Of a DNA stretch of 30,000 nt, positions 24-29,015 are shown piece by piece. How positions within the stretch are numbered: position 1 is the stretch's first letter; each line of letters opens with the position of its first letter. The notes below the pieces were generated by a model. It was not told the DNA's origin and searched no databases. It saw only the letters and a program-made list of their open reading frames with translations. A program made the position numbers and the translations under genes. The DNA is from Sutterella faecalis (GTDB lineage: Bacteria > Pseudomonadota > Gammaproteobacteria > Burkholderiales > Burkholderiaceae_F), in the NCBI RefSeq assembly GCF_006337085.1, contig NZ_CP040882.1:18654-48653 (forward strand), given 5' to 3'.

Positions 24-1493
24 GTGACTGAAGAAAGCGCACAAAAGCGAAGGACGCGGCGCGATCTGCTGGGGAGCGTTTTTGCGTCTGCTGTTGCCGC
101 GGGCGGCCTCACCCTCGGGGGCTTCTCCAACGCTTCCGAAAAGGAGGCAAAGCTTCCGGCGGAAGCCGACGTCGTCGTTGTGGGATCCGGTATCGCCGGG
201 CTCTCCGCTGCCGTCGCTGCAAAGGAGGCCGGCGCGAGGCGCGTGCTGCTTCTGGAAAAGGGGCCGATTGCGGGCGGACACAGCATTTATTCGAGCGGAA
301 GCATCAGCGTTGTTTCCCCGCGGCTGCAGGGGCCTAAGGGCTTTCAGGATACGCCGAAGCTTTTTGCCGAGGACGCCTACGCCTACGGCGACAGCTGCGG
401 TGACCTTGCGATTCTCGAAAGAATCGGAGCGGAGTCGGAATCTGCGCTCCTCTGGCTTGCATCCATGGGCGTGCGGTTCGGCGGCCTCTTTACCGCCAGA
501 GCCGAAACCCGGCCGAGATGCGTCTCGAGCTACGGGAATTCCGCGGGCCGAAGCTACGTACTCGCGCTCATGACCCGGGCGGATGCGATGGGCGTCGAAG
601 TTCTCCTCGAAGCGGATCTGCGGTCGCTGGACTGCCTTACCGACGGCAGCGGCTGGAGCCTCGGCGTGAAGCGCAAAAGCGCCCCTGCGCTTCAGTACCT
701 CAAAACCCGCGCCGTCGTTCTGGCAGCAGGAGGTTTCGGCGCATGCCGCGAAATGCGGATGAAGGTGATGCCGGAGCTCGATCCGCAAATAGAGACTTCT
801 GCGAATCCCTTCGGCACGCTTTGGGAAAACCGGGATGCGACGGCCGCGGAGCTTGCGCGAAATGCTGGAGGCTTCTGGAAGGAAGGCTTGGGGCTCCAGC
901 TCCTCCCCTACTGGGGCGGGCGGCTCATCGACTACGCGGGCGGCGACATCTTCATCACGCTCCGGGGTCGCCGCTTCATCGACGAAGGCCTCGCATGGAA
1001 CAAGATTTCTGCGGCTGTTCTCCGGCAGCCCGAGAAGGAAATCTGGGTGATCACCGACAGCGCCTCAAGAAAGAGCGCGACCCTCGGCCTCAAGATCGCC
1101 AACGGCTTCGTGAAGAAGTCGGACACTGTGGAAGAGATGGCGGCGGGGATGGGCATTCCGGCAGCGGTATTGAAGGAAACGCTCGACAAATACAACCGCG
1201 CCGCGCGCGTTGGGTTCGACCCGGAGTTCGGGAAGACCATCTTCACGCAGACGCTCGATCATCCGCCTTACTACTGGGGGCGCGAGCGGATTATCGTACA
1301 CACGTCCCTCGACGGCATCGCGACTGACCGGGAGGCGAGGGTAATCGATGCACGCGGCCTCCCCATTCCGGGGCTCTACGCCGCGGGCGAATTCGCGGGC
1401 GGGATTTTCGGCCGCGACCGCATCGGGGGCGCGGGGATTTCCAACTGCCTCGTGATGGGGCGCGCTGCCGGGAGAAATGCGGCCCGCGTCTGA
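24..1493 (+). CDS. Exported FAD-dependent oxidoreductase of the fumarate-reductase/flavocytochrome-c flavoprotein family, with a Tat signal
   Basis: 489-aa ORF with a GTG start at 24, preceded by AAGGAG at 10-15. The N-terminus has the twin-arginine motif RRTRRDLLGS followed by a hydrophobic stretch. It has the dinucleotide fold VVVGSGIAGLSAAVAA..LLEKG and the C-terminal GLYAAGEFAGGIFG..GGAGISN motif typical of this family. Confidence 0.85.
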   Translation: MTEESAQKRRTRRDLLGSVFASAVAAGGLTLGGFSNASEKEAKLPAEADVVVVGSGIAGLSAAVAAKEAGARRVLLLEKGPIAGGHSIYSSGSISVVSPRLQGPKGFQDTPKLFAEDAYAYGDSCGDLAILERIGAESESALLWLASMGVRFGGLFTARAETRPRCVSSYGNSAGRSYVLALMTRADAMGVEVLLEADLRSLDCLTDGSGWSLGVKRKSAPALQYLKTRAVVLAAGGFGACREMRMKVMPELDPQIETSANPFGTLWENRDATAAELARNAGGFWKEGLGLQLLPYWGGRLIDYAGGDIFITLRGRRFIDEGLAWNKISAAVLRQPEKEIWVITDSASRKSATLGLKIANGFVKKSDTVEEMAAGMGIPAAVLKETLDKYNRAARVGFDPEFGKTIFTQTLDHPPYYWGRERIIVHTSLDGIATDREARVIDARGLPIPGLYAAGEFAGGIFGRDRIGGAGISNCLVMGRAAGRNAARV

Positions 1494-1550: not shown

Positions 1551-1660
1551 AAAGGCACCCTCCCGGAAAATGACGGGCATGTCCCGGATAAAAGGCAAGG
1601 CTTCAAACCCGCCTTGAATGTCCGGAGACGGCACGCAAATTGATGAAGAGGAGATTGAGA

Positions 1661-2581
1661 ATGCAGCGTCGTCATCTGTTCGGTACCGCTTTTGGAGCTG
1701 CCGCAGCGGTTGTGGTTCCGGCGGCGGAAGCGAGCGTTTCGGATCATTTCGGCGAGAAGATGCGCCCGATCGATACGGAAAACCGCGCGCCCGGCTGGGG
1801 CGTCGGCGCTGTGAAGCCCCTGGAAGTCAAAGGGCGCCGGATCGGCGAGGGACGTCCGAAGCTCATCGCCCCGACGACGAGCAAAAACCCCGCCGACCTT
1901 TATCAGACGCTCGAAAAGTTTGCCGGCATGGAGGCGCTCGACATGGTCGAGGTCCGCATCGACTACCTTGGGAAACTCGCGCCGGCTGAATTTGCCGAGG
2001 TCACGCAGAAGGCCTACAAGGCGGCAGGCGACAAGATCGTGCTCGTGACGCTTAGAAACGGCACCGACGGCGGCCCCTTCATTGCCGAGGACAAGTACTA
2101 CGGCGACGTTTACCGCGCCGTTATTGAGTCGGGCAAGGCCGACATCATCGATCTCGAGCTCTTCCGCGATGCGGACATGATCCGCTCCCTCGTCAAGGCA
2201 GCGCACGCCAAAGGCATCAAGGTCATCATCAGCGACCACGAATTCAAATTCACGCCCGACGAAGGCGAAATCATCCGGAGGCTGCTGCTCGAGCAGGAAT
2301 TCGGCGCCGATATTCTGAAGCTTGCCGTCATGGCGTTCTCGCCCGAAGATGCGCTCACCGTGATGACCGCAACCGCGAAGATGCGCCACTACTACAGCGA
2401 CCGCCCGATGCTCACGATGGCGATGGGAAAGTGGGGCGTTCTCACCCGTATCACGGGCGAGGGGTTCGGCTCCGACCTCACCTTCGCGTCCGTGGGCGGA
2501 AAGGCGAGCGCGCCCGGCCAGATTCCGGCTGAGGAATGCCTCTCGGTTCTCGATACGCTTCACCGCGCGATGAATCCGTAA
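1661..2581 (+). CDS. Type I 3-dehydroquinate dehydratase paralogue with an N-terminal Tat-like export signal (predicted periplasmic)
   Basis: The ORF opens at 1640, but GAAGAGGAG at 1646-1654 favours the ATG at 1661. The N-terminus MQRRHLFGTAFGAAAAVVVPAAEA-SV looks like a twin-arginine signal with an AxA-type cleavage site. The mature part aligns motif by motif with the cytoplasmic AroD at 20828-21586: ISDHEFKFTP vs [19 protein letters not shown] vs [20 protein letters not shown] vs [18 protein letters not shown] in both. Confidence 0.8.
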   Translation: MQRRHLFGTAFGAAAAVVVPAAEASVSDHFGEKMRPIDTENRAPGWGVGAVKPLEVKGRRIGEGRPKLIAPTTSKNPADLYQTLEKFAGMEALDMVEVRIDYLGKLAPAEFAEVTQKAYKAAGDKIVLVTLRNGTDGGPFIAEDKYYGDVYRAVIESGKADIIDLELFRDADMIRSLVKAAHAKGIKVIISDHEFKFTPDEGEIIRRLLLEQEFGADILKLAVMAFSPEDALTVMTATAKMRHYYSDRPMLTMAMGKWGVLTRITGEGFGSDLTFASVGGKASAPGQIPAEECLSVLDTLHRAMNP

Positions 2582-2659: not shown

Positions 2660-4459
2660 ATGAAGAAGACTTTTGCTGCTCTTGCGGTTGCCGCGCTTTT
2701 CGCGACCGCCGCTTCCGCCGCCACCTTCAAGGCGGGAACCTACACGGCTTCCGCCCCCGGCATTCACGGTCCCGTTACCGTTGAAGTGACCTTCACGGCC
2801 GACAAGCTTTCCGCCGTCAAGGTCGTGAAGCAGACCGAAACTCCGGGCATCGGCACGCTCGCCGTCGACCAGCTCCCCCAGAAGATCGTCGACGCCCAGT
2901 CGCCGAAGGTTGACGGGGTCTCGGGCGCCACGATTACGTCTGATGCCATCCGGAAGGCCGTTGCCGACTGCGTGAAGCAGGCGGGAGCCGACCCGGAAGC
3001 GCTTGTTCCGGTGGTGCTCAAAAAAGTTGCCAAGAATGAAGACCTCGCCACTGACGTCGTCATCGTGGGCGGCGGCGGTGCCGGCATGTCCGCGACCATC
3101 CGCAGCCGCATGAACGGCCTCAACGTGATCCTGGTTGAAAAAATGCCCTTCATCGGGGGCGCCGCTTCGATTTCGGGCGGCCAGGTTGTCGCTCAGGGCT
3201 CGAAGCTCCAGAAGGCCTTCGGCTCCAAGGACGACTCCGTCGACTCGATGGTGCAGGATTTCTTGAAGAACGGCGCCGGCAAGAACGATCTCTCGAAGCT
3301 CACGCTCTATGCGAAGAACGTCGGCCCCACGATCGACTGGTTGAATGAAAAGGTGGGCGTTAAGTTCATCCCGAACGATCTTCCCTACCTCGCCGAGTAT
3401 TCGCACCGCCGCGCGCTCGAATTCCAGGGGGGCGCCGGCACCATGGCGCAGCACCTGCGCGAAGTGATTGCGCAGAACGGCGCCAAGGTCTTCTACAACA
3501 CCCGCGTTGAAGACCTCATTGTCGAGGACGGGAAGGTCACGGGCGTGAAGGCGGTCGACTTGAACAGCGGCACGACCTACACCATCAAGGCGAAGAAGAC
3601 CCTCCTCACGACGGGAGGCTACGGCAACAACAAGTCGCTCCTGACGCCCGAAATGCAGAAGGTTCTCTACTACGGTCCGGTCTCCTCGACGGGCGACGGC
3701 CTCCAGATGGCTGAGAAGCTCGGCGTCAAGACTCAGCTCCTCCAGTACGGCAAGCGCTATCCGAACGGCATCGAAGTCGCTCCGGGCAAGGCCAAGTCCA
3801 CGATTTACGCCAATGTCGGCGCCTTTGATCAGGCGGGCATTCTCGTCAACGTGAACGGCGTCCGCTTCGTGAATGAAAAGGCTTCAAACCGCCACATTCT
3901 CGAGCCGATGCTGAAGAACCCCAACGGTCAGGCCTATGTCTTCATGGATCAGAAGTCCTGGGAAGGCTTCTACAAGCGCCTCCCCGAAACGGGCGTTTCG
4001 CATGAGGATGCCGACAAGTATCTCGCTAACGGCGGGAAGACTCCGCCGCTCTTCGTGAAGGCCGATACGATCGAAGGCGTCGCGAAACTCGCGGGCATCA
4101 ATGCTGAAAACCTGAAGGCGACCGTTGCCAAGTACAACGGGTTCGTGAAGGCCAAGAAGGATGCGGACTTCGACCGTCCGGTTCAGTACATGAAGGCAGA
4201 GATTTCGGCCGAAGGCCCCTACTACATCGTCGAGCAGAAGCCGCGCTTTGCGACCACGATGGGCGGCGTCTGCACGGACGACAAGCTCAACCTCGTGAAG
4301 AAGGACGGCTCGGTCATCCCGAACCTCTACGGCGCGGGTGAAATCGTGGGCGGCGTGATGGGCGACGACTCGCCTGCCGGCGCCAACGTGGGCTGGGCCC
4401 TCACGTCGGGCCGCGTGGCTGCCGACAGCATCGCGGAAGCCATCAAGGCCGGGAAGTAA
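2660..4459 (+). CDS. Sec-exported flavin reductase: FMN_bind domain fused to an FAD-binding fumarate/urocanate-reductase-like domain (UrdA-type architecture)
   Basis: 599 aa with signal peptide MKKTFAALAVAALFATAASAA. The flavinylation-type motif DGVSGAT lies at residues 85-91 (nt 2912-2932). It has the fold VVIVGGGGAGMS..ILVEK and the C-terminal NLYGAGEIVGGVMG motif. Confidence 0.88.
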   Translation: MKKTFAALAVAALFATAASAATFKAGTYTASAPGIHGPVTVEVTFTADKLSAVKVVKQTETPGIGTLAVDQLPQKIVDAQSPKVDGVSGATITSDAIRKAVADCVKQAGADPEALVPVVLKKVAKNEDLATDVVIVGGGGAGMSATIRSRMNGLNVILVEKMPFIGGAASISGGQVVAQGSKLQKAFGSKDDSVDSMVQDFLKNGAGKNDLSKLTLYAKNVGPTIDWLNEKVGVKFIPNDLPYLAEYSHRRALEFQGGAGTMAQHLREVIAQNGAKVFYNTRVEDLIVEDGKVTGVKAVDLNSGTTYTIKAKKTLLTTGGYGNNKSLLTPEMQKVLYYGPVSSTGDGLQMAEKLGVKTQLLQYGKRYPNGIEVAPGKAKSTIYANVGAFDQAGILVNVNGVRFVNEKASNRHILEPMLKNPNGQAYVFMDQKSWEGFYKRLPETGVSHEDADKYLANGGKTPPLFVKADTIEGVAKLAGINAENLKATVAKYNGFVKAKKDADFDRPVQYMKAEISAEGPYYIVEQKPRFATTMGGVCTDDKLNLVKKDGSVIPNLYGAGEIVGGVMGDDSPAGANVGWALTSGRVAADSIAEAIKAGK

Positions 4460-4540: not shown

Positions 4541-4580
4541 AGAGCCGCCGGAACTTTCTCGGTCCCGGCGGCTCTTTATT
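4541..4580. terminator. Bidirectional intrinsic terminator between convergent genes
   Basis: The stem gagccgccgg/ccggcggctc (4542-4551 and 4565-4574) is followed by tttatt on +. The - strand also has a T-rich tail. Confidence 0.7.
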
Positions 4581-4645: not shown

Positions 4646-6196
4646 TTACGCCTTCGCAGCGGCGCGGATGCGCGCGAGCACCGGGTTGACGGAGGTCCCG
4701 TCCCAGGCTTTCTGCGCCGACTCGAGGAGGTCTTCCGCGTCGTAGATCCGGGCGGAGTCGCGGCACGCCTGAAGCTCATGGTCGGACGCGGCAAAGCGGA
4801 TGTCGGCGTCGTCCTCGTCCCGCACGACGCCGAGCGTCTGGAGCCTCACGAGCGAAGCGATGAAGTCGTCGGGGTAGTTGTCAATCCAGTCGTATTCGTC
4901 GGCGACGCCGACCTTCTTCAGATACTTCGCGTAGAGCGCGTCAATGACCGCGATGACGACGTACGTCATGAAGAACCGTCCCTGAGGCGAAGCGCCTTCA
5001 AAGCTGGTGCCGTTGTAGGCGTCCATGCAGTCGGCGATGGTCTTTGCATCATGCGGGATCGCGTCGAAGTTCTGGTACCAGATTCCCTCGACATTCATGA
5101 GATCGAGTTCGGCATTGTTGGTAAAGAACGCCTTGAAGCCGCAGATTTCTCTTTTTTTTTGGAATTCTTCCTGCGTGAGGCGCCCGTCGTTCAGTACCCA
5201 TTCGAGGCCTTCGGCCGTTGCGTCTTCATAGGATCTTTCATGCAGAAACACGGCCGAGACCGGCTTCTCAAGACGAGGGAGCACCAGGCCGGAAATGGTT
5301 TCAGTGGAGCTGCCCGTCTTCTTCCATTCCGGATTGTCGTCCGTATCCTTTTTCACTAGCTTCCGGGCGATTCCTTCAGCAGGTTCAAGATCGATGCTCG
5401 ATTGAGCAAAGAACTTGAAGCCTTTCTTTTCGAGCTTGGCAAGCGACCGGAAGTCGGAAGGGGAGGTAATCCAGTCGACCACGGTGACGTCGTAGCCCTC
5501 CTTCAGGGCGCCGGTGCGGTCAAGGAGGCATTGAACGGCTTCGAGCGCCGCCTTGGCGCAGTCCGGATAATTTGCTTTCGACGGGAAGCCGCCCAGCACC
5601 TTGGGATCATCGGGCTGCGAGAAGTCCAGAATGGAAATCGAGGATCTCGCGAAGCTCGGGCTGCAGCGGACGATTGGTTCCATGCCGATGGAAACGGCAA
5701 GGCGCTTCGCGCCCGAGCGCCGGATGCGGGCGGCGTTGAAGCGCTCGAGGAGGTTGGGGCTCCGGCTGATCTCGCGGAACAAGTCGTTCATTTCCATCTC
5801 GCTCAGAGCGCCGGAACCGAAAAGCTTGCTCGGCCGCGAGACGACGGCCCGGTCGGCGAGGTCGGAGAGATCCTTCCGTCTGAAGCTCTCCGTCAGGAAG
5901 AAGGAGGCTGTGGAGCCGACAGCAGCGTTGAGGAGGTGGAGCGTGAGCGCCGGGTTGTATCCGAGCGCCTGGGACATGTCTTCGACGAGTCCGGTCTCCT
6001 CGAGCGTCCGGGCAATCAGCGCGGTGAGCGCGGGATAAACCGTGTCGTCGGTATCGAGATTTACGTCGCGGACCACCATCTGATCGCGAATTTCGCGAAG
6101 GCGCTTGGGATTTTCGAGAATTTTGACGTCTGAAGCTTCCATGATAAAAGGCCCGTCCGGCCGTCTGAATGTCAACAATGTCGGACTATCGCACAT
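4646..6196 (-). CDS. Hypothetical protein of 516 aa, with weak resemblance to an IS4/IS1634-type DDE transposase core that has degenerate catalytic positions
   Basis: Long ORF with normal amino-acid composition, whereas the overlapping + strand ORFs are V/G/R/D-rich antisense-type. Segments such as YDVTVVDWITSPSDFRSLAKLEKKGFKFF and WYQNFDAIPHDAKTIADCMD..GRFFMTYVVIAVIDAL recall the VvDRGf and Y..R..IE..F.lK regions of IS4/IS1634 transposases, but key residues are not conserved. The start is ambiguous between ATG 6196 and ATG 6142, and neither has a good RBS. Confidence 0.6.
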   Translation of the reverse strand: MCDSPTLLTFRRPDGPFIMEASDVKILENPKRLREIRDQMVVRDVNLDTDDTVYPALTALIARTLEETGLVEDMSQALGYNPALTLHLLNAAVGSTASFFLTESFRRKDLSDLADRAVVSRPSKLFGSGALSEMEMNDLFREISRSPNLLERFNAARIRRSGAKRLAVSIGMEPIVRCSPSFARSSISILDFSQPDDPKVLGGFPSKANYPDCAKAALEAVQCLLDRTGALKEGYDVTVVDWITSPSDFRSLAKLEKKGFKFFAQSSIDLEPAEGIARKLVKKDTDDNPEWKKTGSSTETISGLVLPRLEKPVSAVFLHERSYEDATAEGLEWVLNDGRLTQEEFQKKREICGFKAFFTNNAELDLMNVEGIWYQNFDAIPHDAKTIADCMDAYNGTSFEGASPQGRFFMTYVVIAVIDALYAKYLKKVGVADEYDWIDNYPDDFIASLVRLQTLGVVRDEDDADIRFAASDHELQACRDSARIYDAEDLLESAQKAWDGTSVNPVLARIRAAAKA

Positions 6197-6364: not shown

Positions 6365-7903
6365 TCAGCTGCGCTTTTCAGCAGCCGCGTTTTCCCCTGC
6401 AATCAGGCCGAAGGAGGAGCAGTCCGGCATGGAGCAGGCCGTGAGGCGCTCCTGCCCGTGAAGGCCGCCCGACGCTTCGCCCGCAACATAGAGTCTCGGA
6501 ATCGGAGCGCCGTCGCGAAGGCGGATTGCCTGAGCCTTTTCGTTGGTGCGGATGCCGCCCGGCGTGTAGTTGAGCCGCGGCGTCACGACCATCGTGTAGA
6601 AGGGGCCTTCGGCCGAGAGCGGCTCCACCTTGCGCCCGGAGCGCTCCATGGGCTTGTTGAACTCGGTGTCCCTGCCGCCTGCAATCAGCTCGTTGTATTT
6701 GACGAGGCTCTCCTGGAGCGCCTTGCCGTCGGTGCTGTAGTGCTTTGCGAGTTCGTCGAGCGACGTAAACTTGAGAATCGCGCCGTCGATGCCGTTCTTG
6801 TCGGCGAGGCTTTGCTCGAGGCGCTTCATGTTGTGGAATTTTTTAAGCGCCTTTTCGTCCCAGACGATGAAGGGCTTGCGGTCGCCGTTGCGCAGACGAT
6901 GCTGGAGAACGGCGCTCGCGAGCGTATTGCGCGTTTCGCCTTCGCTCATGAAGCGGCGTCCGGTGGCGGGATCGATGAGCATGCCCCAGATCATGTCTTC
7001 GGTCGGGAGCGGATAGGCAAAGCGGAAAAGCGAAAGCTGCACGGCCTGAGCGCCGGCCGCCTCGAGCATCTTGAGGGATCCGGCCGTGGCGCCCGCATTG
7101 GTGGTCGATACAACGCCTGCGAGGAAGGGAACCTCGGACGAGCGGAAGGCCTTGTCCTGGGCATAGCCGCCGGTCGCGAAAACAACTGCCTGGCGGGCGC
7201 GGATCGTCTTCATGACGCCGGTCGAATTCGCCCAGTCGTCGTCCGCATTGCGCGAGAAAACATAACCTTCGCGAACCCGGAGGCCTGAGGCTTCTCCCTT
7301 TTCATTCAAAAGCACTTCCTCGGCGCGGCACTTCGTGCGGATCTGAATGTCCGAATGCGCCTTCATCCAGCTCCAGAGCGCGGAAAGCATGCCGGCGCCG
7401 CCGCCCTGGGCGGAAAGGCCGCGCGCGACGCTGTGGCCGCCAAGCTTGAGAAGACGCCCGTCCCATTTGACGCCGTGAGCCGTGAGGAAGGCTTCCACGC
7501 GGGCGGTGGTCTGCGCCATGAGGAGCGCGCGTTCATAGCTTCCGAAGCCGCCCGAAACCTTCGCCATGTCGCCTGCGAGGAGTTCTGGAGCGTCCTTGAC
7601 GCCTTTTTCCTTCTGAAGCGGCGAGCCGACGCAGGCAAAGTCGAGGCCGGACACGAGAGACGTGCCGCCGGGAAAGGACATTTTTTCGAGCATCAGGACT
7701 TTGGAGCCTTTTTCCGCTGCGGCAATGGCCGCAATCGTCCCGGCGATGCCCGTGCCGACCACGATCACGTCGACTTCTTCGTCCCATTTGCTATTAGTCG
7801 GCGCGGCGTGCGCGGGATGCGCGGCAAAGGGCGCGAGAGCGGCGGCGCCGAGAGCGGCTCCGGCTGAACGGGTGAGAAACTGGCGGCGGGACTGCGGGTT
7901 CAT
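6365..7903 (-). CDS. Tat-exported FAD-dependent reductase of the fumarate-reductase/flavocytochrome-c flavoprotein family
   Basis: 512 aa. The N-terminus is MNPQSRRQFLTRSAGAALGAAALAPFAAHPAHA, giving the SRRQFL Tat consensus and AHA cleavage. It has the fold VIVVGTGIAGTIAAIAAAEKGSKVLMLEK and the C-terminal RLYVAGEASGGLHG motif. Confidence 0.88.
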   Translation of the reverse strand: MNPQSRRQFLTRSAGAALGAAALAPFAAHPAHAAPTNSKWDEEVDVIVVGTGIAGTIAAIAAAEKGSKVLMLEKMSFPGGTSLVSGLDFACVGSPLQKEKGVKDAPELLAGDMAKVSGGFGSYERALLMAQTTARVEAFLTAHGVKWDGRLLKLGGHSVARGLSAQGGGAGMLSALWSWMKAHSDIQIRTKCRAEEVLLNEKGEASGLRVREGYVFSRNADDDWANSTGVMKTIRARQAVVFATGGYAQDKAFRSSEVPFLAGVVSTTNAGATAGSLKMLEAAGAQAVQLSLFRFAYPLPTEDMIWGMLIDPATGRRFMSEGETRNTLASAVLQHRLRNGDRKPFIVWDEKALKKFHNMKRLEQSLADKNGIDGAILKFTSLDELAKHYSTDGKALQESLVKYNELIAGGRDTEFNKPMERSGRKVEPLSAEGPFYTMVVTPRLNYTPGGIRTNEKAQAIRLRDGAPIPRLYVAGEASGGLHGQERLTACSMPDCSSFGLIAGENAAAEKRS

Positions 7904-11213: not shown

Positions 11214-11640
11214 ATGACCAACTTCGATACAAAGACGCTTTTTACTGCCGCTCTGATGCTCCCGGAGCCTTGGTACATCGACCAGGTTGATTTCCGTGAG
11301 GAGCCGGGCAAGGCCCGGACGCTTCACATCTTCATCAAATTCAGGCAGGACGCTCGCTTCCAGGATCCTGCAGCGGCGGGCGGAGCGAAAGCTTCCCCGG
11401 TTCATGACACGCTTCCGGGCACCTGGCGGAATACGAATTTCTTTCAATACCCGTGCCTCATCCATTGCGATGTTCCTCGGATCCTTGGGAGCGACGGCAG
11501 GATTCGGCAGGTTGCGGTTCCCTGGGAACGAGCGGAGAGCGGTTTCAGGCGGCTTTGAGTGGTTGATGCTCTCTCTCGCTCCGAAAGGGAATCGCCGGCC
11601 GCCGCCGATGATTTTTTCCTGCGCTGCGCCGCGGCAATGA
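11214..11640 (+). pseudogene. Decayed N-terminal remnant of an ISL3-family transposase
   Basis: The 114-aa ORF LPEPWYIDQVDF..LHIFIKF..VHDT..TWRNTNFFQY.C.IHC.VPR...VPWERAESGF follows the ISL3 N-terminal/zinc-finger pattern, but the CxxC cysteines are replaced (FQDPAAAG). The continuation (FEWLMLSLA..) sits in another frame, and there is no catalytic domain before the next gene. Confidence 0.7.
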
Positions 11641-11743
11641 GGATTGATGAGCTCCGCTCAGGACGCTGCCTCTGCCCGTACACGACATCGCCAATGGCAC
11701 AAGCCGATGGCTTTTTGGGTCGCGCCGTCTTTGATGCCTATTG

Positions 11744-12586
11744 ATGGACGTAACAAGAAAAATGGATGAAAAGGAATTCAGGGAAATTGAAGCCAGGCTC
11801 CTGAGCGACAAGAAGATGGCGTTGGAGATGACGGATGACATTTTCAAAAAGCTCAATGAACAAAAGCCGCTGACTCCGCCGGCTGTCGCCCGTCTCCGCG
11901 ATGAAATGATGCTGGAAAACACCTTTGATTCCAACGCGATCGAGGGTTCGCGCCTGACTCTGCGGGAAACCGTTCTGGTCGTCAAGGAAGGCGTTAGGGA
12001 TGGAAATGGGTTCCGCATGAAGGATGTTCTTGCCGCCCTGGGCTACGCTCGTGGCTTTGAGGTGATTTTGGATTTGGCAGATCAAGAGATCCCCTGCGAT
12101 GAGGACGTGATTAAGCGGCTCCATCAGTACGTCATGCTCGGCGCCTTCCCTGAATATTGCGGCGTTTGGAGGGATCACGCGGTCAGGGTGCTGGGGGCTG
12201 CCCTCAAACCGGCCGGGTTTCGGGAGATTCCGCAGAAAATGCACGATCTCGTTGCCTGGTACCAAAATGAAGATGCGATGCATCCGATCGAAAAGGCCTC
12301 AAGGTTTCATGCGGAGTTCGAGACGATTCATCCTTTTGCCGACGGCAATGGAAGAACCGGGCGGCTGCTTTTGAATTTCATGCTGGTCCGCGAAGGCTAT
12401 TGGCCTGCGAATATCCGTTGTCAGGAAGATCGCGAGCGGTATTACGCGGCGCTTTATTCGTTTCAAAGCAGGGGAAATGTTGACGATCTGACGGCGCTGA
12501 TCGCCGTGAGAGAGGCGGAGCAGCTTTTGTATTGCCTCAAAATCGCTTTGCAGCCGGAACATGCTCGACAGGGCCGTTCCTGTTGA
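11744..12586 (+). CDS. Fic-family protein (class II, putative AMPylase) with an internal inhibitory motif
   Basis: The Fic motif HPFADGNGRTGRLL is present, and the N-terminal inhibitory-helix-type motif SNAIEG matches (S/T)xxxE(G/N). The start is ATG 11744, with TTG 11741 or ATG 11762 also possible. The gene is visibly more A/T-rich than its surroundings. Confidence 0.88.
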   Translation: MDVTRKMDEKEFREIEARLLSDKKMALEMTDDIFKKLNEQKPLTPPAVARLRDEMMLENTFDSNAIEGSRLTLRETVLVVKEGVRDGNGFRMKDVLAALGYARGFEVILDLADQEIPCDEDVIKRLHQYVMLGAFPEYCGVWRDHAVRVLGAALKPAGFREIPQKMHDLVAWYQNEDAMHPIEKASRFHAEFETIHPFADGNGRTGRLLLNFMLVREGYWPANIRCQEDRERYYAALYSFQSRGNVDDLTALIAVREAEQLLYCLKIALQPEHARQGRSC

Positions 12587-12914
12587 ATTTGTAGTTTCTG
12601 TCTTTCGAAATCTCGCAAGAGATGCTTTAGAGCGATAGGATGACTTTCCTGCCGCCCGAGACGGATGCGACAAACTGTTCTCTCGGCCTTTTAGCCGAAT
12701 TGCTTCAAGGCTTGGGAAGCTCAGGTTGGGCGGCGTCGAGAATGGCGCGTAAGTTCTGAAGTGTATGAGGAAAAAGCTTGAGAAGCTGCTGGCTGATATC
12801 AGGGCTCTTAGGGGGCGGGAGGTCTGTAGCCATCCCTTATGGCTAACCGCATACGATTTTGATGGTAAAAACGATGTATTTGTGATGATAAAAAGTACCG
12901 ATTGCTTCTGTTTG

Positions 12915-12992
12915 ATATGATCATGATTGTATGAATGATGGTATCAATACAATCATGATTGTATAATGATTGTATCGTGATCGTATGATCAC
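12915..12992. promoter_or_regulatory. A/T-rich promoter/operator region with palindromes and ATGATTGTAT repeats upstream of the 13018 gene
   Basis: An 18-bp perfect palindrome atacaatcatgattgtat lies at 12947-12964 and overlaps a TATAAT at 12962-12967. ATGATTGTAT occurs three times (12923, 12955, 12966). The inverted repeat gtgatc-gtat-gatcac lies at 12977-12992. Confidence 0.5.
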
Positions 12993-13017
12993 GCCTGTTA
13001 TAAGTCGGAGCACAGCC

Positions 13018-14697
13018 ATGACCGAACTCTACGAAGCTCAAAAAGGACTTTTTCCGGAAAGAGAAACATTGACCGTTGAGTTCAAAAGTGATCCAAAAGG
13101 AGGGCTGAAGAATGACGTTGTCGTAGACACGGCAGTGGGTTTTGCAAATGCAGAAGGCGGAACGCTCTTCATTGGCCTAAACGATGACGGCTCGGTCGGT
13201 GGAGTGAAGTCGCCAAAATGGAGGAATCCGGAGCTGGCGGTTGCCTACATTGCTTCGCACAGCGTTCCCCCGATCACTGCAACGGCCGAAATCGTCAGGG
13301 TTTCTGATGCACTTGAAGTGCTTGCCATTCATGTGCCGAAAGCCACAGGCATTGTTGCAACGAATGATGGAAAGCTCATGAAGCGTCGCATTAAAGCTGA
13401 TGGGACACCGGAAACATCGCCACTTTTTCCGCAGGAATTTATTTCGAGGCTTGCGGAAATCGGGCGTTGCGACTATTCGTCCATGACACTTCCCAACACG
13501 ACGTACGATGACTTCGATGCCAATGAACGGCAGAGGCTTCGCGAGTTCCTCCGGGACAACAATGGCGAAAAAGCGCTCATGGATCTCGAAGATGAGGATC
13601 TCGACAAAGCGCTGGGGCTGGTCCGTGGCTCTCCCGAAGGCTTGATTCCTACAATAGCGGGGATTCTCATCCTGGGGAAAGAAAGGCGGATTAGACAGCT
13701 GCTTCCAGGCGCCGGGGCGGTTTTCCAGCACCTTGCCGGCACAGATGTGCTCGCGAATGAAGAGATGCCGCTGCCACTTCTGAAGGGCTTTCAGGCGCTT
13801 CTTGACCGCTTCAATGCAAGAAACAGCGAGACCGAGATTACGCAGGGTCTGGCGCGTATTGCCATTCCGACATTTTCCGAACAGGCGTTTCGCGAGGCGC
13901 TCGTCAACGCTTTCTGTCATCGCGACTATACGATCCTCAATCGCGTTTCCGTCCGTCTCTCTGATGACGGACTTGAGATCACGAGCCCTGGCGGTTTCGT
14001 TTCCGGTGTGAGTCTTGAGAACCTCCTCACCGTTGAGCCGCATCCGAGAAATGGACTTCTCGCCGACGTGTTGAAGCGCCTCGGATTGGCGGAACGGACA
14101 GGCAGAGGCATTGACCGCATCTTTGAAGGGAATCTTCTCTACGGGCGACCGAGCCCCGACTATTCGGAATCGAATTCCGACAGTGTTCGTGTTTTCTTTC
14201 CGAAGTGCGATCCTAATATTCCGTTCTTCCAGCTCATCATCGAGTATCAGAAGAAGCTCGGAAGTCGCATCTCCGTTCAAAGCTTAATCGTACTGTCTGC
14301 AGTACTCTTTGCCAAACGCCTAAACTTCGCCGGAATCGCCGCTGCGACGCATATCCCGGAATTGAGGTTGAAGCGCCATGTAGAGACGCTGGTCGAAGAC
14401 GGTCTCCTTGAAGCAAGAGGCAACGGCCGCGAGCGCGACTTTATTTTGAGTCCGAAGTTCTATAAAGCGCAGAAGCGTGTAATTGAGCACGTGCGCCAAG
14501 CCGGAATCGGGGCCGTAAAAAATGAGGATCTGATCATGCAACTTGTCCAGGAGCAGGGCAATGTGACGCGCAGTGACGTCGCCGCGCTCCTGGGCGTTAA
14601 TCCGCAAATAGCCTATCGGCTATTGAAAAAGCTGGTTGAGGACGGTGCTCTCGTCCGTGAAGGTGCCAAGCGTCTGAGCGTCTATCGCTTAGCCTGA
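13018..14697 (+). CDS. AlbA_2 (Schlafen-like) domain protein with an HATPase_c_4-like region and C-terminal winged-helix domains; putative ATP-binding transcriptional regulator
   Basis: The ATG at 13018 is preceded by GGAG. The N-terminal ETLTVEFKSD...GFANAEGGTLFIGLNDDG matches the AlbA_2 pattern, and the middle AFREALVNAFCHRDY...ERTGRGIDRIF matches the HATPase_c_4 pattern. The C-terminal regions (LVEDGLLEARG.., LLKKLVEDGALVREG) are wHTH-like. Confidence 0.8.
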   Translation: MTELYEAQKGLFPERETLTVEFKSDPKGGLKNDVVVDTAVGFANAEGGTLFIGLNDDGSVGGVKSPKWRNPELAVAYIASHSVPPITATAEIVRVSDALEVLAIHVPKATGIVATNDGKLMKRRIKADGTPETSPLFPQEFISRLAEIGRCDYSSMTLPNTTYDDFDANERQRLREFLRDNNGEKALMDLEDEDLDKALGLVRGSPEGLIPTIAGILILGKERRIRQLLPGAGAVFQHLAGTDVLANEEMPLPLLKGFQALLDRFNARNSETEITQGLARIAIPTFSEQAFREALVNAFCHRDYTILNRVSVRLSDDGLEITSPGGFVSGVSLENLLTVEPHPRNGLLADVLKRLGLAERTGRGIDRIFEGNLLYGRPSPDYSESNSDSVRVFFPKCDPNIPFFQLIIEYQKKLGSRISVQSLIVLSAVLFAKRLNFAGIAAATHIPELRLKRHVETLVEDGLLEARGNGRERDFILSPKFYKAQKRVIEHVRQAGIGAVKNEDLIMQLVQEQGNVTRSDVAALLGVNPQIAYRLLKKLVEDGALVREGAKRLSVYRLA

Positions 14698-14809
14698 TTT
14701 ATCAGCCGGCAGCTCAAATTGGAGTCTTCGTCTTCGGAAACGCAATGCGGATATCAAGCAGTGGGTGCCGCCAGCCGCAACCAAACCCATGCAGAACCAT
14801 GTGAAAGCC

Positions 14810-14861
14810 ATTCCTTGCAGACATCGGAATAAAAGGAATGCTGATTATTCCTTGCAGGAAT
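14810..14861. repeat. Direct and inverted ATTCC/GGAAT repeats in the intergenic region upstream of the dipeptidase gene
   Basis: attccttgcag occurs at 14810-14820 and at 14847-14857. The hairpin-capable aaggaat..attcctt and attcc-ttgca-ggaat (14847-14861) were read directly. Confidence 0.4.
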
Positions 14862-15113
14862 AGATGTTGCATCTGTCATTTCCTGAAACTGATGCCATAA
14901 AAAACAATAAGAAATGGTGCTTCATGTGTTCCTGAAGCGACCAAAATCCCGAATAAGCACAAAAAGCATGCCGCCGGCATGAACTGAAGTTGGGACTTGT
15001 CCGAATAGAGATCTACAACAAATGTCTTAATCTCGTCTCCACAGCCGGGAGGGCGCTTACATAGCGTCCTGACAGAGCTGAAAAAAGAAATACCATCAAA
15101 TGGAGAGAACTCT

Positions 15114-17778: not shown

Positions 17779-18933
17779 TTATTCGCGGTAGGCCTTCAGG
17801 ATCTGACGGCCGGCGATGTAGATCATGATTTCGTCCGTGCCGCCGCCGATGCGTTCGCAGCGGACGTCGCGCCAGAGGCGGGAGACGCGGGCGTCGTTCG
17901 TGTAGCCGAGGCCGCCCATGATCTGGATCGCGTCGTCGATCACTTCAAGCGCCGTGCGGGCGCAGTAGAGCTTCGCAAGCGACGACGTCACGCGCAGCGA
18001 TTCCTTGCGGTCCGCCTGCCAGGCCGTCTGCAGAACCATGTTGCGCATGTTCTTGCACTTGACGGCCATGAGGGCGAGCTTTTCCTGAATCATCTGGTTG
18101 AAGCCGATCGGCTGACCGAACGCGATGCGCTGGTTGGCGTAGCGGGCGGCGTCCTCGAAGGCGCATTCCGCAAAGCCCGTGCAGCGGGCGGCGTTGATGA
18201 GGCGCTCCATTTCGAAGTTGTACATGACGTTGAGGAAGCCCTTGCCTTCCTCGCCCACCATGTCGGATTCCTCAACCTCGACGTTGTCGAGGTAGACCTC
18301 GCAGGTGCTCACGAGGTGCCAGCCGATCTTGTGAAGGGGATTCACCTTGATGCCGGGCTTCTTCGCGTCGACCCAGAAGAGGGAGAAGGCTTTCTTCGGA
18401 TCCTGCTGCTCGGGATCGCGGGCGATGACGAGCATGTACGGGTATTCGGCAGCGCCCGTGATGAAGGTCTTCTGGCCGTTGAGGTAGATCTTGCCGTTGC
18501 GGCGCGTGAAGGTCGTGGCGGTGGCGTTGCTGTCGCTCCCGGCGCCCGGTTCCGTGAGGGCGAGCGAGTAGGCGGGGTCGCCCGTGGCGGCCGTGCTTTC
18601 AGCGGTCTTTTTGAGCTGCTCGGGGGAGCCGAAGCGGAGCATCGAGTGGATGCACTGGCCGTTCGTAAGGAGGAAGGCCGGAGCGCCGCACTTGGCGACT
18701 TCCATGAGGGCGAGCATCTGCGTCACGTAGTCGGCCGGAATGCCGCCGAATTCTTCAGGGACGCCGAGCATCGAGATGCCGTTTTCGGCGAGGGCCTTCA
18801 TGAATTCGCGCGGGTAGGTGCTCGTTTCGTCGTGGGTGCGCCAGTACTCTTCAGGGAACTCGGTCGTGATGAGTTCGCGGATGGAGGCAAGGAGCAGCTC
18901 CTGCTCTTCGGTGAGCGAAAAATCGATAGCCAT
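17779..18933 (-). CDS. ydiO: Acyl-CoA dehydrogenase / enoyl-CoA reductase, YdiO-like (CaiA-type)
   Basis: 384 aa. The opening IDFSLTEEQELLLASIRELITTEFPEEYWR...GISMLGVPEEFGG and the C-terminal RDVRCERIGGGTDEIMIYIAGRQILK match my recollection of E. coli YdiO nearly collinearly. Confidence 0.9.
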   Translation of the reverse strand: MAIDFSLTEEQELLLASIRELITTEFPEEYWRTHDETSTYPREFMKALAENGISMLGVPEEFGGIPADYVTQMLALMEVAKCGAPAFLLTNGQCIHSMLRFGSPEQLKKTAESTAATGDPAYSLALTEPGAGSDSNATATTFTRRNGKIYLNGQKTFITGAAEYPYMLVIARDPEQQDPKKAFSLFWVDAKKPGIKVNPLHKIGWHLVSTCEVYLDNVEVEESDMVGEEGKGFLNVMYNFEMERLINAARCTGFAECAFEDAARYANQRIAFGQPIGFNQMIQEKLALMAVKCKNMRNMVLQTAWQADRKESLRVTSSLAKLYCARTALEVIDDAIQIMGGLGYTNDARVSRLWRDVRCERIGGGTDEIMIYIAGRQILKAYRE

Positions 18934-18980
18934 TTTCTCTTTTCCTTGAAATGGGAAAGGTTTGGGAATTTGGGAAGGTG

Positions 18981-20573: not shown

Positions 20574-20827
20574 GGAATTCTCCGGATAGAGCGGCCCGCA
20601 CCGGGAGAACCCTGCGGACGCTTTGCTCGTAAATTTGGGGTTTCGGATTCGTCTACGCCCTTTTCGGGCGCGAGATAACCCGGCTGCGGCGCTTTTAGGG
20701 CGCAGCAGAGTGCTGGAGGTTTTCAGAAAATCGATCGTGCGGGCCCGCAGGGAAGAACTTCACTCGTGCGGGCGCGGTCCGCGTCCCGGCTGAAGAACGC
20801 CGGGGAGCGCGGGAAGACGGCCGGAAA

Positions 20828-21586
20828 TTAAGCCGCGTGAATGATCGAGAGGACCGTGCGGAGGTCGGTCACGGAGATCTGGCCCGGGGCGGAGGCCTTC
20901 TGGACGGCGCCGAAGGTGGCGGCGGAACCGAAGACTTCGCCGGCAAGGCGGGAGATGACGCCGGTCTTAGACATCGACATCGTGATGATCGGACGGTCGG
21001 CAATCTTCTCGGAAACTTCAAGGGTGGCGGCAAGAACCGTGAGAACGTCGGTCTTGGATTCGGGCATGAGCGCGATCTTGGGCACGTCGGCGCCGAGTTC
21101 CTGCATCTTGGTGAGGCGCTTGACGATCTCTTCCTTCGCCGGCGTCTTGTGGAAGTCGTGGTTCGACATGATGACCTTCACGCCCTTCGCATGCGCGCGG
21201 GCGATGGCCTGGGAGACGAGGGCGTCGCCCGTGAAGAGCTCAAGGTCGATCGCGTCGACGAGGCCGCTTTCAGCCATGGCGATGTTGAGCGCAATGTAGG
21301 CTTCGGGAGCAAGTTCCTCTTCGCCGCCTTCCTTCTTGCTGCGGAACGTGAAGAGGATGGGCTTGTCGGGGAAGACTGCGCGGAGTTCGCGCAGGGCTTC
21401 GAGGGCGGCCGCCGTGTCGGCGATGGCGGCGAAGTGGTCGCCGCGCCATTCGAGGATGTCGAAGTCGGCGGAGCGGTAGGCGAGGGCTTCGCTCTTGACG
21501 GCGGCAATGTCCTTCGCCATCAGGGAGACGATGATCTTCGGGGCGCCTTCGCCCAGGGTAACGTTTTTAATCTGAACTGTCTGCAT
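20828..21586 (-). CDS. aroD: Type I 3-dehydroquinate dehydratase (cytoplasmic)
   Basis: 252 aa with no signal peptide. The motifs [34 protein letters not shown] (catalytic His) and PKIALMP (Schiff-base Lys) are present. Confidence 0.93.
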
Positions 21587-21695
21587 TTCAGAATCCGGAG
21601 AGAGGAGAAAGTAAGGATACGGTGCTTTTCGGGGATCCGCGCCCCCCGCCGGACGGAGCTGGAGAAGATGCCGTCCGGACGGGGAAGTCAGCGGA

Positions 21696-22559: not shown

Positions 22560-22734
22560 TTTTGACTCCTTCAAATATTTAGGAAATGCGGAAGATTTGG
22601 AGATCGGGGTTCCGGGACCAGGGATCGGGTCCATGAGCCGGAGCGCCCGGGGATATCCGGCTTCCGGGGAAGAGCGGGGAAAGGTTCCTCACTCTTTCCG
22701 GAAAAGCCTGTTGGGTTGGGTTAGAGAAAGCGGA

Positions 22735-26234: not shown

Positions 26235-26261
26235 TCCAGCGCATCGCAGGAGAAATTCATC

Positions 26262-27191: not shown

Positions 27192-27212
27192 CAGCGCTTG
27201 AACTGAAGCAAT

Positions 27213-28978: not shown

Positions 28979-29015
28979 TGCCGGAAGCGACGGCGACGCA
29001 TTCCCTGCTCTGATC

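Follow-up and report, generated by a model that had tools for sequence, protein, structure and literature searches.

The locus analysed here raises the question of why a gut bacterium, Sutterella faecalis, should carry a second type I 3-dehydroquinate dehydratase (dehydroquinase; EC 4.2.1.10) with an export signal, and should carry it between two respiratory reductases. The window, that is, the whole stretch of 30,000 nucleotides that was analysed, is 97% identical to S. seckii. In the present study, we propose that this second, exported dehydroquinase probably helps the bacterium to use plant-derived acids of the quinate and shikimate type as electron acceptors, because its export signal is conserved and its gene shares an operon with those of periplasmic respiratory reductases.

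The coding sequence of the Tat-signal dehydroquinase, identified from the open reading frames, the sequence and the profile and structure matches, occupies positions 1661 to 2581 of the forward strand and encodes 306 amino acids. A Shine-Dalgarno-like AGAGGAG can be read at 1647-1653 (forward strand), 7 nt upstream of the ATG at 1661, and an AGGAG-like element stands at an equal distance from the start in the DNA alignment of other species. The alignment of six species shows DNA that is conserved from exactly ATG 1661 onwards, with synonymous differences (CGT or CGC) in the codons of the two signal arginines. Hence, ATG 1661 was taken as the start. Met34, which would place the start downstream of the hydrophobic segment, was ruled out because both protein and DNA are conserved already from ATG 1661; an in-frame TTG at 1640 is a possible alternative start further upstream. 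The protein matched Pfam DHquinase_I (PF01487) with E=3.1e-55 over residues 71-297 (188.2 bits, cutoff 22.2) and TIGR01093 aroD with 185.6 bits (cutoff 139.3), and the type I dehydroquinases of the PDB matched it at E~5e-50 in alignments spanning residues 48-305. The (beta/alpha)8 barrel, residues ~51-306 (1811-2578, forward strand), to which these alignments and the Pfam match also point, was modelled confidently by AlphaFold2, with alternating strand and helix elements and pLDDT above 90 from residue ~50. A preliminary description of this DNA had called the gene a type I dehydroquinase paralogue, and the two profile scores above cutoff bear this out together with the alignment of the active site.

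For the latter, the 306-aa protein was aligned to S. enterica AroD, whose numbering is used here. The protein retains E46, R48, R82, D114, E116, H143, K170, M203, M205, R213, F225 and S232-A-P-G-Q236 (ASAPGQ); of the 16 residues checked, 14 are identical, among them K170, H143, R48, R82, R213 and S232-Q236. The catalytic His193 (H143 of S. enterica, within DHEF) is encoded at 2237-2239 and the Schiff-base Lys220 (K170, within ILKLAVM) at 2318-2320, and both are invariant in 51 aligned sequences. The sole change listed is that of Glu86, the carboxylate partner of His143, to Asp (D136). The earlier claim that the contexts of Lys and His and the ASAPGQ tail are retained stands, with the correction that one residue of the catalytic triad differs. 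Asp occupies this position in all examined members of the Tat clade with at least 57% identity, and a deeper Tat subclade retains Glu. The swap is conservative; Light et al. reportedly found in 2013 that Glu86 mutants keep their activity. Combined with the additional conserved N-terminal motif described below, E86D could mean an altered substrate or role.

The N-terminus of the protein, MQRRHLFGTAFGAAAAVVVPAAEA followed by Ser (MQRRHLF…AEA before S), has the build of a signal peptide at residues 1-24 (1661-1732, forward strand). The motif Q-R-R-H-L-F is followed by an h-region of 18 uncharged residues, rich in Ala, Gly and Val (mean Kyte-Doolittle 1.57), and by a predicted cleavage site of the AxA type between A22-E-A24 and S25. 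In the alignment of the clade (47-83% identity), R3 and R4 were found in 29/29 members, as was A24, and S25 in 28/29. Two arginines at position 3-4 or 4-5 are also present in every full-length long-form cluster of the homologue list. Comparison within the clade shows that the sequence of the h-region drifts while the arginine pair and the AxA with its following Ser stay fixed; relatives carry motifs such as DRRMFLK, DRRKFLQ and QRRNLIK, and the c-region of several homologues contains a basic residue. The Tat-signal profiles TIGR01409 and PF10518 gave no match to the N-terminal 40 residues of the dehydroquinase, and one homologue reached 12.4 bits with PF10518 (cutoff 22.7). In the same TIGR01409 scan, the neighbouring reductase FR1 (17.7) and FR3 (23.4) scored above the cutoff of 16.7. 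Since the profiles are silent for the dehydroquinase, the call of its signal rests on motif and evolutionary conservation. The twin-arginine signal of the preliminary description was thus upheld by arginines and an AxA that are conserved across the clade and translated from ATG 1661, yet it escapes both profiles; overall, the sequence supports a Tat-type export signal. The signal is followed by a clade-specific extension of the mature N-terminus, residues 25-50 (1733-1810, forward strand). Its motif, K33-x-x-P36-[VI]-D-T-x-N41-x-x-x-G45-W46, is conserved in the Tat clade; neither cytoplasmic AroD nor the Sec-type forms have the extension. AlphaFold gives pLDDT below 50 over residues 1-46, so the N-terminal motif is predicted to be unstructured.

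The gene lies between two flavin reductases. On the 5' side, FR1 (24-1493, forward strand) is a Tat-exported FAD_binding_2 reductase of the flavocytochrome-c type, without FMN_bind or haem domain (Pfam 2.7e-47; TIGR01409 as above). Among the neighbours of the dehydroquinase it is the most constant, its orthologues adjoining the gene in 11/12 lineages. On the 3' side, at a distance of 78 nt, the domain scan showed FR2fmn (2660-4459, forward strand), a reductase that combines a Sec-type signal with an FMN_bind domain, which carries the flavinylation-type motif DGVSGAT, and with an FAD_binding_2 domain. The closest solved structures to FR2fmn are the urocanate reductase UrdA (4e-50) and, after it, the Fcc3 fumarate reductases. 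FR2fmn retains the Arg in GVRFVNE, which we take to be the catalytic proton donor of Fcc3/UrdA. Compared with UrdA, the first His of HHTMGG is replaced by Ala and the second by Thr, and the Arg of GTNRLGG by Ser; the changed positions presumably correspond to the carboxylate-binding His504 and Arg545 of Fcc3. Because these positions are changed, the substrate of FR2fmn is not readable from homology.

In the window and in one further lineage (L001), the genes follow each other on a single strand in the order HK-RR-FR1-DHQase-FR2fmn. The preliminary description had suggested a survey of signal-bearing AroD homologues beside FAD_binding_2 reductases, and this neighbourhood proved to be kept in 11/12 Sutterellaceae lineages, where a TtrS-like sensor kinase, a FixJ/TtrR-like regulator and FR1 occur with the dehydroquinase in rearranged gene order. 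An UrdA-like reductase (FMN_bind plus FAD) lies directly 3' of the dehydroquinase in 7/11 lineages and is absent from the neighbourhoods of L012, L020 and L021. S. wadsworthensis carries the cassette (L005), and in one lineage (L002/L003) the dehydroquinase is an orphan without it. Tat-signal AP_endonuc_2 barrels accompany the cassette in two lineages (L011 and L012), with weak similarity to QuiC (E 1e-9 to 4e-6, far under the cutoff) and to IolI (8e-10). As a dehydroshikimate dehydratase, these barrels are a lead only, because the similarity to QuiC is far below the cutoff and the window holds no copy, tblastn of the two proteins against it giving no match at E<=1e-8. Domain scans of the long ORFs of the window showed no PQQ or other quinate dehydrogenase, dehydroshikimate dehydratase or porin. 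The spacer between FR1 and the dehydroquinase contains a perfect 16+16 nt palindrome, TTCTCCACTACACCCG gg CGGGTGTAGTGGAGAA (1519-1552), which may be a hairpin or an operator and is imperfect and partly degraded in S. seckii. It was rejected as a terminator, as no T-run follows the stem and the terminator scan did not list it. In addition, the hairpin scan found a 14-bp GC-rich hairpin after FR2fmn (4541-4575), between convergent genes, which is likely the end of the FR1-dehydroquinase-FR2fmn transcription unit.

The other type I dehydroquinase gene of the window (aroD; 20828-21586, reverse strand; Pfam 4e-73) encodes a protein 71% identical to E. coli AroD. The preliminary description named it the canonical copy. 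It is a real type I AroD; however, it is not a lone housekeeping gene but part of a ydiN-ydiB-aroD-ydiF-ydiO / ydiQRST-fadK cluster with 54-84% identity to its E. coli counterpart. The YdiB-type dehydrogenase (21696-22634) lacks a signal and presumably stays in the cytoplasm. A recent transfer of this island from E. coli was considered and is unsupported, since its GC content (~0.61) matches that of the rest of the window. In S. wadsworthensis (L005), the AroD/YdiB/MFS cluster is not beside the cassette, the neighbours there being an alpha/beta hydrolase and ABC transporters.

Overall, we put the chance somewhat above even that the whole reading is right, namely that an active, Tat-exported dehydratase works with respiratory reductases which use hydroaromatic acids as terminal acceptors. 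In the scheme that we infer, for the location, substrate and direction of the reaction as well as for the pairing of reductases with substrates, Tat would export the folded dehydroquinase to the periplasm, and signal peptidase would then free the mature protein. There, the type I enzyme would convert 3-dehydroquinate to 3-dehydroshikimate by its Schiff-base mechanism. This dehydration would create a C1=C2 bond conjugated with the carboxylate and the C3 ketone, which enoate-type flavin reductases could reduce. FR1 (Tat, FAD) and FR2fmn (Sec, covalent-FMN domain and FAD) would draw electrons from the respiratory chain to reduce 3-dehydroshikimate and/or shikimate, under the control of the TtrS-like sensor kinase, with its periplasmic ligand-binding domain, and of the FixJ/TtrR-like regulator. 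Such a module would be the periplasmic respiratory counterpart of the quinate-to-dihydroshikimate reduction of lactobacilli. A source of 3-dehydroquinate in the periplasm is likewise presumed, and it counts against this reading that the cassette holds no obvious maker of it. The orphan dehydroquinase of L002/L003, the lack of the FMN_bind reductase in L012, L020 and L021, the silent Tat profiles, E86D with the extra N-terminal motif, and the changed UrdA positions of FR2fmn weigh against it as well. S. wadsworthensis grows on shikimate with formate as donor and converts it to hydroshikimate by reduction of the enoate bond; no shikimate reductase was identified for it in that study (bioRxiv 10.1101/2022.12.26.521950).

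The dehydratase might instead be neofunctionalised, with dehydration and reduction taking turns. It would then, also or exclusively, eliminate water from another beta-hydroxy-ketone cyclitol carboxylate, for instance the 3-oxo-4,5-dihydroxycyclohexanecarboxylate left by reduction of the C=C bond, and the enone would be regenerated for the second reductase while the ring is progressively deoxygenated. The constant pairing of one dehydratase with two different reductases fits this idea, as do E86D in the Sutterella subclade and the extra N-terminal motif of the clade, and the AP_endonuc_2 barrels of L011 and L012, with their weak QuiC/IolI similarity, hint at further dehydrations. However, all residues that bind the carboxylate and hydroxyls of dehydroquinate are unchanged, and the canonical substrate is therefore favoured; the retention of Glu86 in the deeper Tat subclade also speaks against a new substrate, and we regard this alternative as unlikely. 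A QuiB-like, aromatising role, in which 3-dehydroshikimate would pass to protocatechuate through a dehydroshikimate dehydratase and the reductases would be unrelated or act later, seems to us quite unlikely. The periplasmic route of QuiA, QuiB and QuiC is established (PMC4213383; PMC9171043), one RR-signal dehydroquinase (P0227) lies between a cytochrome c and an AP_endonuc_2 protein, and the AP_endonuc_2 genes of L011 and L012 could be taken in the same sense. The window, in contrast, has no AP_endonuc_2 match (E<=1e-8), PQQ dehydrogenase or porin, and the genes that constantly accompany it encode reductases and a TtrS-like sensor. Furthermore, Sutterella respires under anaerobic or microaerophilic conditions with formate as donor, and in the tree the Tat clade and the Sec-type, QuiB-like clade are separate.

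Two further explanations concern the signal itself. If the N-terminus were an uncleaved membrane anchor or a dead relic, the protein would be a redundant AroD of the cytoplasm or membrane, which would agree with the silence of TIGR01409 and PF10518; QuiB has reportedly been described as targeted 'into the inner membrane'. This is made very improbable by the essentially fixed arginines, AxA and +1 Ser across 47-100% identity, over which the h-region drifts, by the translation of the signal (conservation from the ATG) and by the export signals that all operon partners carry. The preliminary description had also suggested export as a folded oligomer or together with a partner. In its strongest form, the Tat signal would serve mainly to co-export a signal-less protein bound to the conserved N-terminal motif, which would account for the Tat routing of a cofactor-less enzyme and for the conservation of a mature motif predicted to be unstructured. 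Co-export is, however, not needed, because FR1 (Tat) and FR2fmn (Sec-type) have signals of their own, and no signal-less candidate is conserved across the cassette neighbourhoods compared. We consider a carrier role extremely improbable.

Returning to the preferred reading of a periplasmic dehydratase that serves respiration, its setting is the colon, where quinate (from the chlorogenic acids of coffee, fruit and vegetables) and shikimate arrive in large amounts. In a classical conversion, gut microbes turn them into dihydroshikimate and cyclohexanecarboxylate, precursors of urinary hippurate, and these products feed the host hippurate that is widely used as a urinary marker of microbiome state. 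To our knowledge, no enzymes have been assigned to date to the conversion of quinate and shikimate to cyclohexanecarboxylate in the gut. The cassette, with its sensor, two reductases and dehydratase, is a concrete candidate for shikimate respiration in Sutterella, and 3-dehydroquinate, 3-dehydroshikimate and possibly quinate are predicted as further electron acceptors. Shikimate respiration has been demonstrated for S. wadsworthensis and E. lenta, with no Sutterella genes assigned to it (bioRxiv 10.1101/2022.12.26.521950). If the preferred reading is true, a non-redox enzyme can be drawn into respiratory reductase cassettes to make a reducible bond in the periplasm, and a cofactor-free enzyme of central metabolism has been re-targeted by Tat, which would be a test case for the use of Tat by folded proteins without cofactor. 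A bolder version, to which we give a low probability, is that gut Sutterellaceae deoxygenate dietary quinate- and shikimate-type acids stepwise, with the dehydroquinase docked to the reductases by its N-terminal motif and renewing the enone or enoate in each round. In that case, the formation of dihydroshikimate and cyclohexanecarboxylate, and with it of the hippurate precursors, would be explained, and the cassette would offer the first genetic access to a periplasmic respiratory pathway that dehydrates and then reduces.

Compared with AroD of E. coli and S. enterica (PDB 3M7W, 1QFE), the Sutterella protein agrees in fold and family (E~1e-50, 41% identity), and the two share the Schiff-base Lys, the catalytic His and the residues that bind the substrate. 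AroD, however, is a cytoplasmic protein of 252 aa with Glu86, whereas the Sutterella protein has Asp, adds a 24-aa RR signal and a conserved extension of ~25 aa, and is encoded in a reductase operon and not among biosynthetic or ydi genes. Exported type I dehydroquinases as such are already known. Elsemore and Ornston reportedly recognised in 1995 that QuiB is a type I enzyme which has acquired a leader sequence. In Erwinia/Pantoea, type I dehydroquinases with a Sec signal adjoin an OprB porin, and there are two more lineages with an RR signal; the separate P0227 has a 433-aa cytochrome c on one side and the AP_endonuc_2 protein on the other. The contig of P0121 is only 1.9 kb long and its gene context is uninformative. 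Precedent is therefore wider than the acetic acid bacteria to which the preliminary description had confined it. Its other statement, that there is no precedent beside reductases, agrees with our literature search, which found no paper that places a dehydroquinase next to respiratory reductases and no description of a Tat signal, the clade-specific N-terminal motif or a reductive setting for this enzyme. A neighbor-joining tree built from the barrel region, which is distance-based, carries no support values and does not include QuiB of Acinetobacter, shows a monophyletic Tat clade apart from the Sec-signal clade, whose enterobacterial members look like QuiB.

Acinetobacter baylyi employs QuiB in its periplasmic conversion of quinate to protocatechuate (PMC4213383). 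The likeness to the Sutterella enzyme is that of a type I dehydroquinase with an export signal, export being predicted here. QuiB (quiBCXA) belongs to an aerobic, oxidative catabolic route alongside PQQ quinate dehydrogenase, a dehydroshikimate dehydratase and a porin, whereas the Sutterella enzyme has a Tat-type signal, a clade of its own, a gut-anaerobe host and, as partners, respiratory reductases and a TtrS-like sensor. In Gluconobacter, dehydroquinate is formed by a membrane quinoprotein QDH and dehydrated at the periplasmic face (PMC9171043), but the dehydratase is of type II (aroQ) and works in oxidative fermentation without reductases, unlike the type I enzyme of Sutterella. Little et al. 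described arsenals of flavin reductases in Sutterella and Eggerthella, those of S. wadsworthensis commonly lying beside two-component systems; the words dehydratase, dehydroquinate and quinate have 0 occurrences in that paper (bioRxiv 10.1101/2022.12.26.521950). The periplasmic FAD_binding_2 reductases by a two-component system are as in the present cassette, and FR2fmn has the architecture of UrdA. What sets the present cassette apart is a non-redox enzyme as a constant member. A close parallel in chemical logic is found in lactobacilli, where Whiting and Coggins are said to have worked out the enzymology of the reductive quinate/shikimate route. For lactic acid bacteria, quinate is a hydrogen acceptor that passes through shikimate to dihydroshikimate: a hydroaromatic acid is dehydrated, and reduction of the resulting unsaturated acid serves as an electron sink (PMC13204703). 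In Lactobacillus this is a fermentative route that runs in the cytoplasm and depends on NAD(H), whereas for Sutterella a respiratory, flavin/quinol-linked route in the periplasm is predicted.

The open reading frame at 1661-2581 of the forward strand was confirmed, and we have very little doubt that its product is a true type I dehydroquinase, as the preliminary description had proposed from the catalytic His and Schiff-base Lys. The Pfam profile DHquinase_I matched residues 71-297 (E=3.1e-55), the NCBIfam model TIGR01093 (aroD) scored 185.6 bits against a cutoff of 139.3, and solved type I dehydroquinases matched residues 48-305 with E about 5e-50. The active site of S. enterica AroD has been defined through structures of covalent intermediates (PMC4114755). 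In the alignment with this enzyme, H143 and K170 are kept as H193 and K220 of the window protein, and E46, R48, R82, D114, E116, M203, M205, R213, F225 and S232-A-P-G-Q236 are unchanged. Two of the 16 checked residues are altered, S21 to Pro and E86 to Asp (D136), so that, of the Lys/His/Arg/Glu set proposed earlier for checking, Lys, His, Arg and the other contacts are in place but E86 is not. Pro in place of S21 is seen in cytoplasmic relatives too. E86D is common to all examined members with at least 57% identity of the Tat clade (the dehydroquinases with a twin-arginine signal), with Glu retained deeper in the clade. The AlphaFold2 model, built from an alignment of 51 homologues, reached pLDDT >90 from residue ~50 to the C-terminus and stayed <50 at residues 1-46.

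The start at ATG 1661, ahead of the hydrophobic segment, was upheld by a DNA alignment of the window with S. seckii, S. wadsworthensis, S. parvirubra and two metagenomic relatives. Among the divergent species the sequence 5' of this ATG was unalignable; since conservation starts at the ATG and both Arg codons of the RR pair differ synonymously across the alignment, the N-terminus is translated. In addition, AGAGGAG lies 7 nt 5' of the ATG. The protein begins with MQRRHLFGTAFGAAAAVVVPAAEA, followed by the cleavage site and S. In 29 aligned clade members (47-83% identity), R3, R4 and A24 are invariant (29/29) and S25 occurs in 28/29; the h-region drifts freely in sequence, yet is uncharged and Ala/Gly-rich throughout. 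All full-length long-form clusters of the homologue list carry RR at residues 3-4 or 4-5, textbook-like motifs (DRRMFLK, DRRKFLQ, QRRNLIK) are present in many long-form clusters, and in some homologues a basic residue stands immediately ahead of the cleavage site. The one contrary test came from the Tat profiles TIGR01409 and PF10518, which gave no match at the dehydroquinase N-terminus, and in the same scan TIGR01409 placed two neighbouring reductases above cutoff. Because a Sec signal would have no reason to retain an invariant Arg-Arg pair, the evolutionary evidence outweighs this failure, and the twin-arginine signal read earlier is retained. Export of the dehydroquinase is predicted and highly probable, and on the plain reading the putative export form of this cofactor-free enzyme is a rapidly folding (dimeric) barrel.

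About 25 residues that separate the barrel from the cleavage site (residues 25-50, window 1733-1810) are strongly conserved in the Tat clade. They carry the motif K-x-x-P-[VI]-D-T-x-N-x-x-x-G-W, with K33 in 23/29 members, P36 in 29/29, and D38, N41, G45 and W46 in 28/29. The segment is confined to this clade, being missing from cytoplasmic AroD and from Sec-type exported forms, and it lies inside the low-pLDDT region that AlphaFold cannot place and predicts as unstructured. Our guess is that it may be a docking or dimer-contact peptide. The window belongs to a Sutterella, and orthologues of the dehydroquinase were found in S. seckii ASD393 (97% identity), S. wadsworthensis DSM 14016 (75%) and S. 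parvirubra (72%), and one match is labelled Turicimonas muris. The clade is a narrow, Sutterellaceae-centred, yet abundant family: it is narrow because, among 1.84 billion 50%-identity representatives searched, it collapsed to one full-length representative (P0032) and a few partials, and some of its 90% clusters comprise 300-1000 sequences. When barrel regions were placed in a distance tree, the Tat clade came out monophyletic, apart from the Sec-signal clade and from the other AroD of the window.

Two exported flavoprotein genes flank the dehydroquinase gene on the same strand. FR1 (24-1493, forward) encodes a flavocytochrome-c-like FAD_binding_2 reductase with a Tat signal by TIGR01409; FR2fmn (2660-4459, forward) combines a Sec-type signal, FMN_bind with a DGVSGAT flavinylation-type motif and FAD_binding_2, and its nearest solved structures are the urocanate reductase UrdA and Fcc3 fumarate reductases. 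As both neighbours carry their own signals, the co-export with a partner suggested earlier is not needed. The transcription unit probably ends at a strong hairpin (4541-4575). Directly 5' of FR1, S. seckii has genes for a TtrS-like histidine kinase and a FixJ/TtrR-like regulator on the same strand; in the window cassette these two genes are cut off by the left edge. Among 12 clade lineages with genomic context, the kinase, a LuxR/FixJ-type regulator and the FR1 orthologue adjoin the dehydroquinase in 11, in varying gene order, the kinase having a periplasmic Phosphonate-bd-type sensor domain; an FMN_bind reductase follows immediately 3' in 7 of the 11 lineages whose downstream side is visible. 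This linkage is strong evidence that dehydroquinase, reductases and sensor form a functional unit. The remaining lineage (L002 8951-9865 / L003 10001-10915) has a lone dehydroquinase, 83% identical and with intact signal; its neighbours are a lytic transglycosylase and a gene of the histone-deacetylase family, and no reductase gene lies closer than 8 kb.

Several further features were observed around the cassette. The FR1-dehydroquinase spacer holds a perfect palindrome of 16+16 nt with a 2-nt spacer (1519-1552). It is the only one of its kind in the window, where 0.08 would be expected by chance, and its S. seckii counterpart is imperfect; it may act as an operator or form a hairpin in the RNA. 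In two Sutterellaceae lineages (L011 2906-3871, forward; L012 2625-3566, reverse) AP_endonuc_2/xylose-isomerase-like barrels with Tat signals (MLQRRDLFKG… and MDRRQFIASA…, respectively) lie beside the FR1 orthologue. Their similarity to QuiC, a dehydroshikimate dehydratase, is weak (E from 1e-9 to 4e-6, far short of the cutoff), as is that to IolI (8e-10), and they may represent a second periplasmic dehydratase; no counterpart in the window came up by tblastn (E<=1e-8). In S. wadsworthensis the gene 3' of the cassette (L005 13059-14333, forward) encodes an alpha/beta hydrolase whose signal is of the Tat lipoprotein type (…LSRRRLLYTAAGSALLSAGALTAC), and alpha/beta hydrolases likewise occur near that of L008; these might be esterases freeing quinate from chlorogenate-type esters. 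No Pfam or NCBIfam model matched the 516-residue open reading frame (4646-6196, reverse) that separates the cassette from a third Tat reductase (6365-7903).

The dehydroquinase reaction converts the saturated beta-hydroxy-ketone 3-dehydroquinate to 3-dehydroshikimate, whose C1=C2 bond, conjugated to the carboxylate, is of the type reduced by UrdA/FccA-type enzymes. Since every substrate-contacting residue is unchanged, we take 3-dehydroquinate itself as the probable substrate. The exported enzyme would supply 3-dehydroshikimate in the periplasm, FR1 and FR2fmn would act on 3-dehydroshikimate and/or shikimate, and the sensor kinase would perceive a hydroaromatic acid there. On balance we lean slightly towards a dehydroquinase that feeds the adjacent reductases in respiration. 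In alignment with UrdA, FR2fmn retains the Arg of GVRFVNE, and has ATTMGG opposite HHTMGG (Ala and Thr replacing the first and second His) and Ser opposite the Arg of GTNRLGG. These His and Arg positions are presumably those of the Fcc3 carboxylate ligands His504 and Arg545, so that the predicted carboxylate binding of FR2fmn is unlike that of fumarate and urocanate reductases. Among the long open reading frames of the window, no signal-bearing quinate dehydrogenase was found as a source of periplasmic dehydroquinate; the YdiB-type enzyme at 21696-22634 (NF009390, 548.8 bits) is without one. S. wadsworthensis grows with shikimate as respiratory electron acceptor, reducing the enoate bond to give hydroshikimate, and Sutterella reductase genes typically adjoin two-component systems (Little et al., bioRxiv 10.1101/2022.12.26.521950); that report makes no mention of a dehydratase, quinate or dehydroquinate. 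The cassette offers genes with which respiration of hydroaromatic acids in the gut can be tested.

The second AroD (20828-21586, reverse), described earlier as a canonical copy, does group with S. enterica AroD in the distance tree, but it is not a lone gene. It sits in a complete ydi-type cluster (17779-29999) in E. coli K-12 gene order, with ydiN-ydiB-aroD-ydiF-ydiO on the reverse and ydiQ-ydiR-ydiS-ydiT-fadK on the forward strand. Amino-acid identity to E. coli is 54-84% (YdiO 84%, YdiF 84%, YdiB 75%, AroD 71%), very high for proteins compared between a beta- and a gamma-proteobacterium, and the GC content (~0.61) is like that of the rest of the window, which suggests an old transfer. The arrangement also suggests that quinate/shikimate dehydrogenase and dehydroquinase are functionally linked to the CoA-transferase/acyl-CoA dehydrogenase/ETF system. 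Elsewhere, a stretch of lower GC (0.52-0.54) at ~12-15 kb (11500-15000), with a Fic-domain protein (11741-12586) and a Schlafen/AlbA_2 + HATPase_c_4 + wHTH protein (12970-14697), looks like an inserted island.

Three features appear undescribed in the searched literature: the Tat-targeted clade and the N-terminal motif peculiar to it, the E86D change in the Sutterella branch, and, in gut anaerobes, the constant link to a TtrS-like sensor and respiratory reductases. In agreement with the preliminary description, no precedent beside reductases was found there. Its restriction of precedent to acetic acid bacteria proved too narrow. QuiB of Acinetobacter is reportedly a type I enzyme with an acquired leader sequence (Elsemore and Ornston, in 1995). 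Together with Sec-signal forms and further RR-signal lineages, it makes the exported type I dehydroquinase an already known kind. In Acinetobacter baylyi, the periplasm is the site of action of QuiA, QuiB and QuiC (PMC4213383), and dehydroquinate dehydration outside the cytoplasm is likewise established in acetic acid bacteria (PMC9171043); the named Gluconobacter dehydroquinase is type II, whereas the window enzyme is type I. Sec-signal type I dehydroquinases occur in Erwinia, Pantoea and relatives with an adjacent OprB porin. At L013/L014 (6638-8912), such enterobacterial-type enzymes lie directly 3' of an OprB-family porin with UbiD/UbiX-type decarboxylase genes nearby, a setting that would fit a periplasmic quinate route of the QuiB/QuiX type. 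Two RR-signal lineages besides the Tat clade were found, P0227 and P0121. The P0227 protein (MEIDRRAAVGSG…; L017 401-2094, L018 766-3760) is an unrelated type I dehydroquinase, and its gene overlaps that of a 433-residue cytochrome c on the upstream side and an AP_endonuc_2 gene on the downstream side; the locus resembles an oxidative quinate-to-protocatechuate unit of the periplasm. P0121, the third RR-signal lineage, begins MHRREFLGSG…. The enzymology of quinate reduction in lactic acid bacteria is said to have been worked out by Whiting and Coggins. These bacteria use quinate as hydrogen acceptor via shikimate and dihydroshikimate (PMC13204703), a fermentative and cytoplasmic precedent for the overall chemistry.
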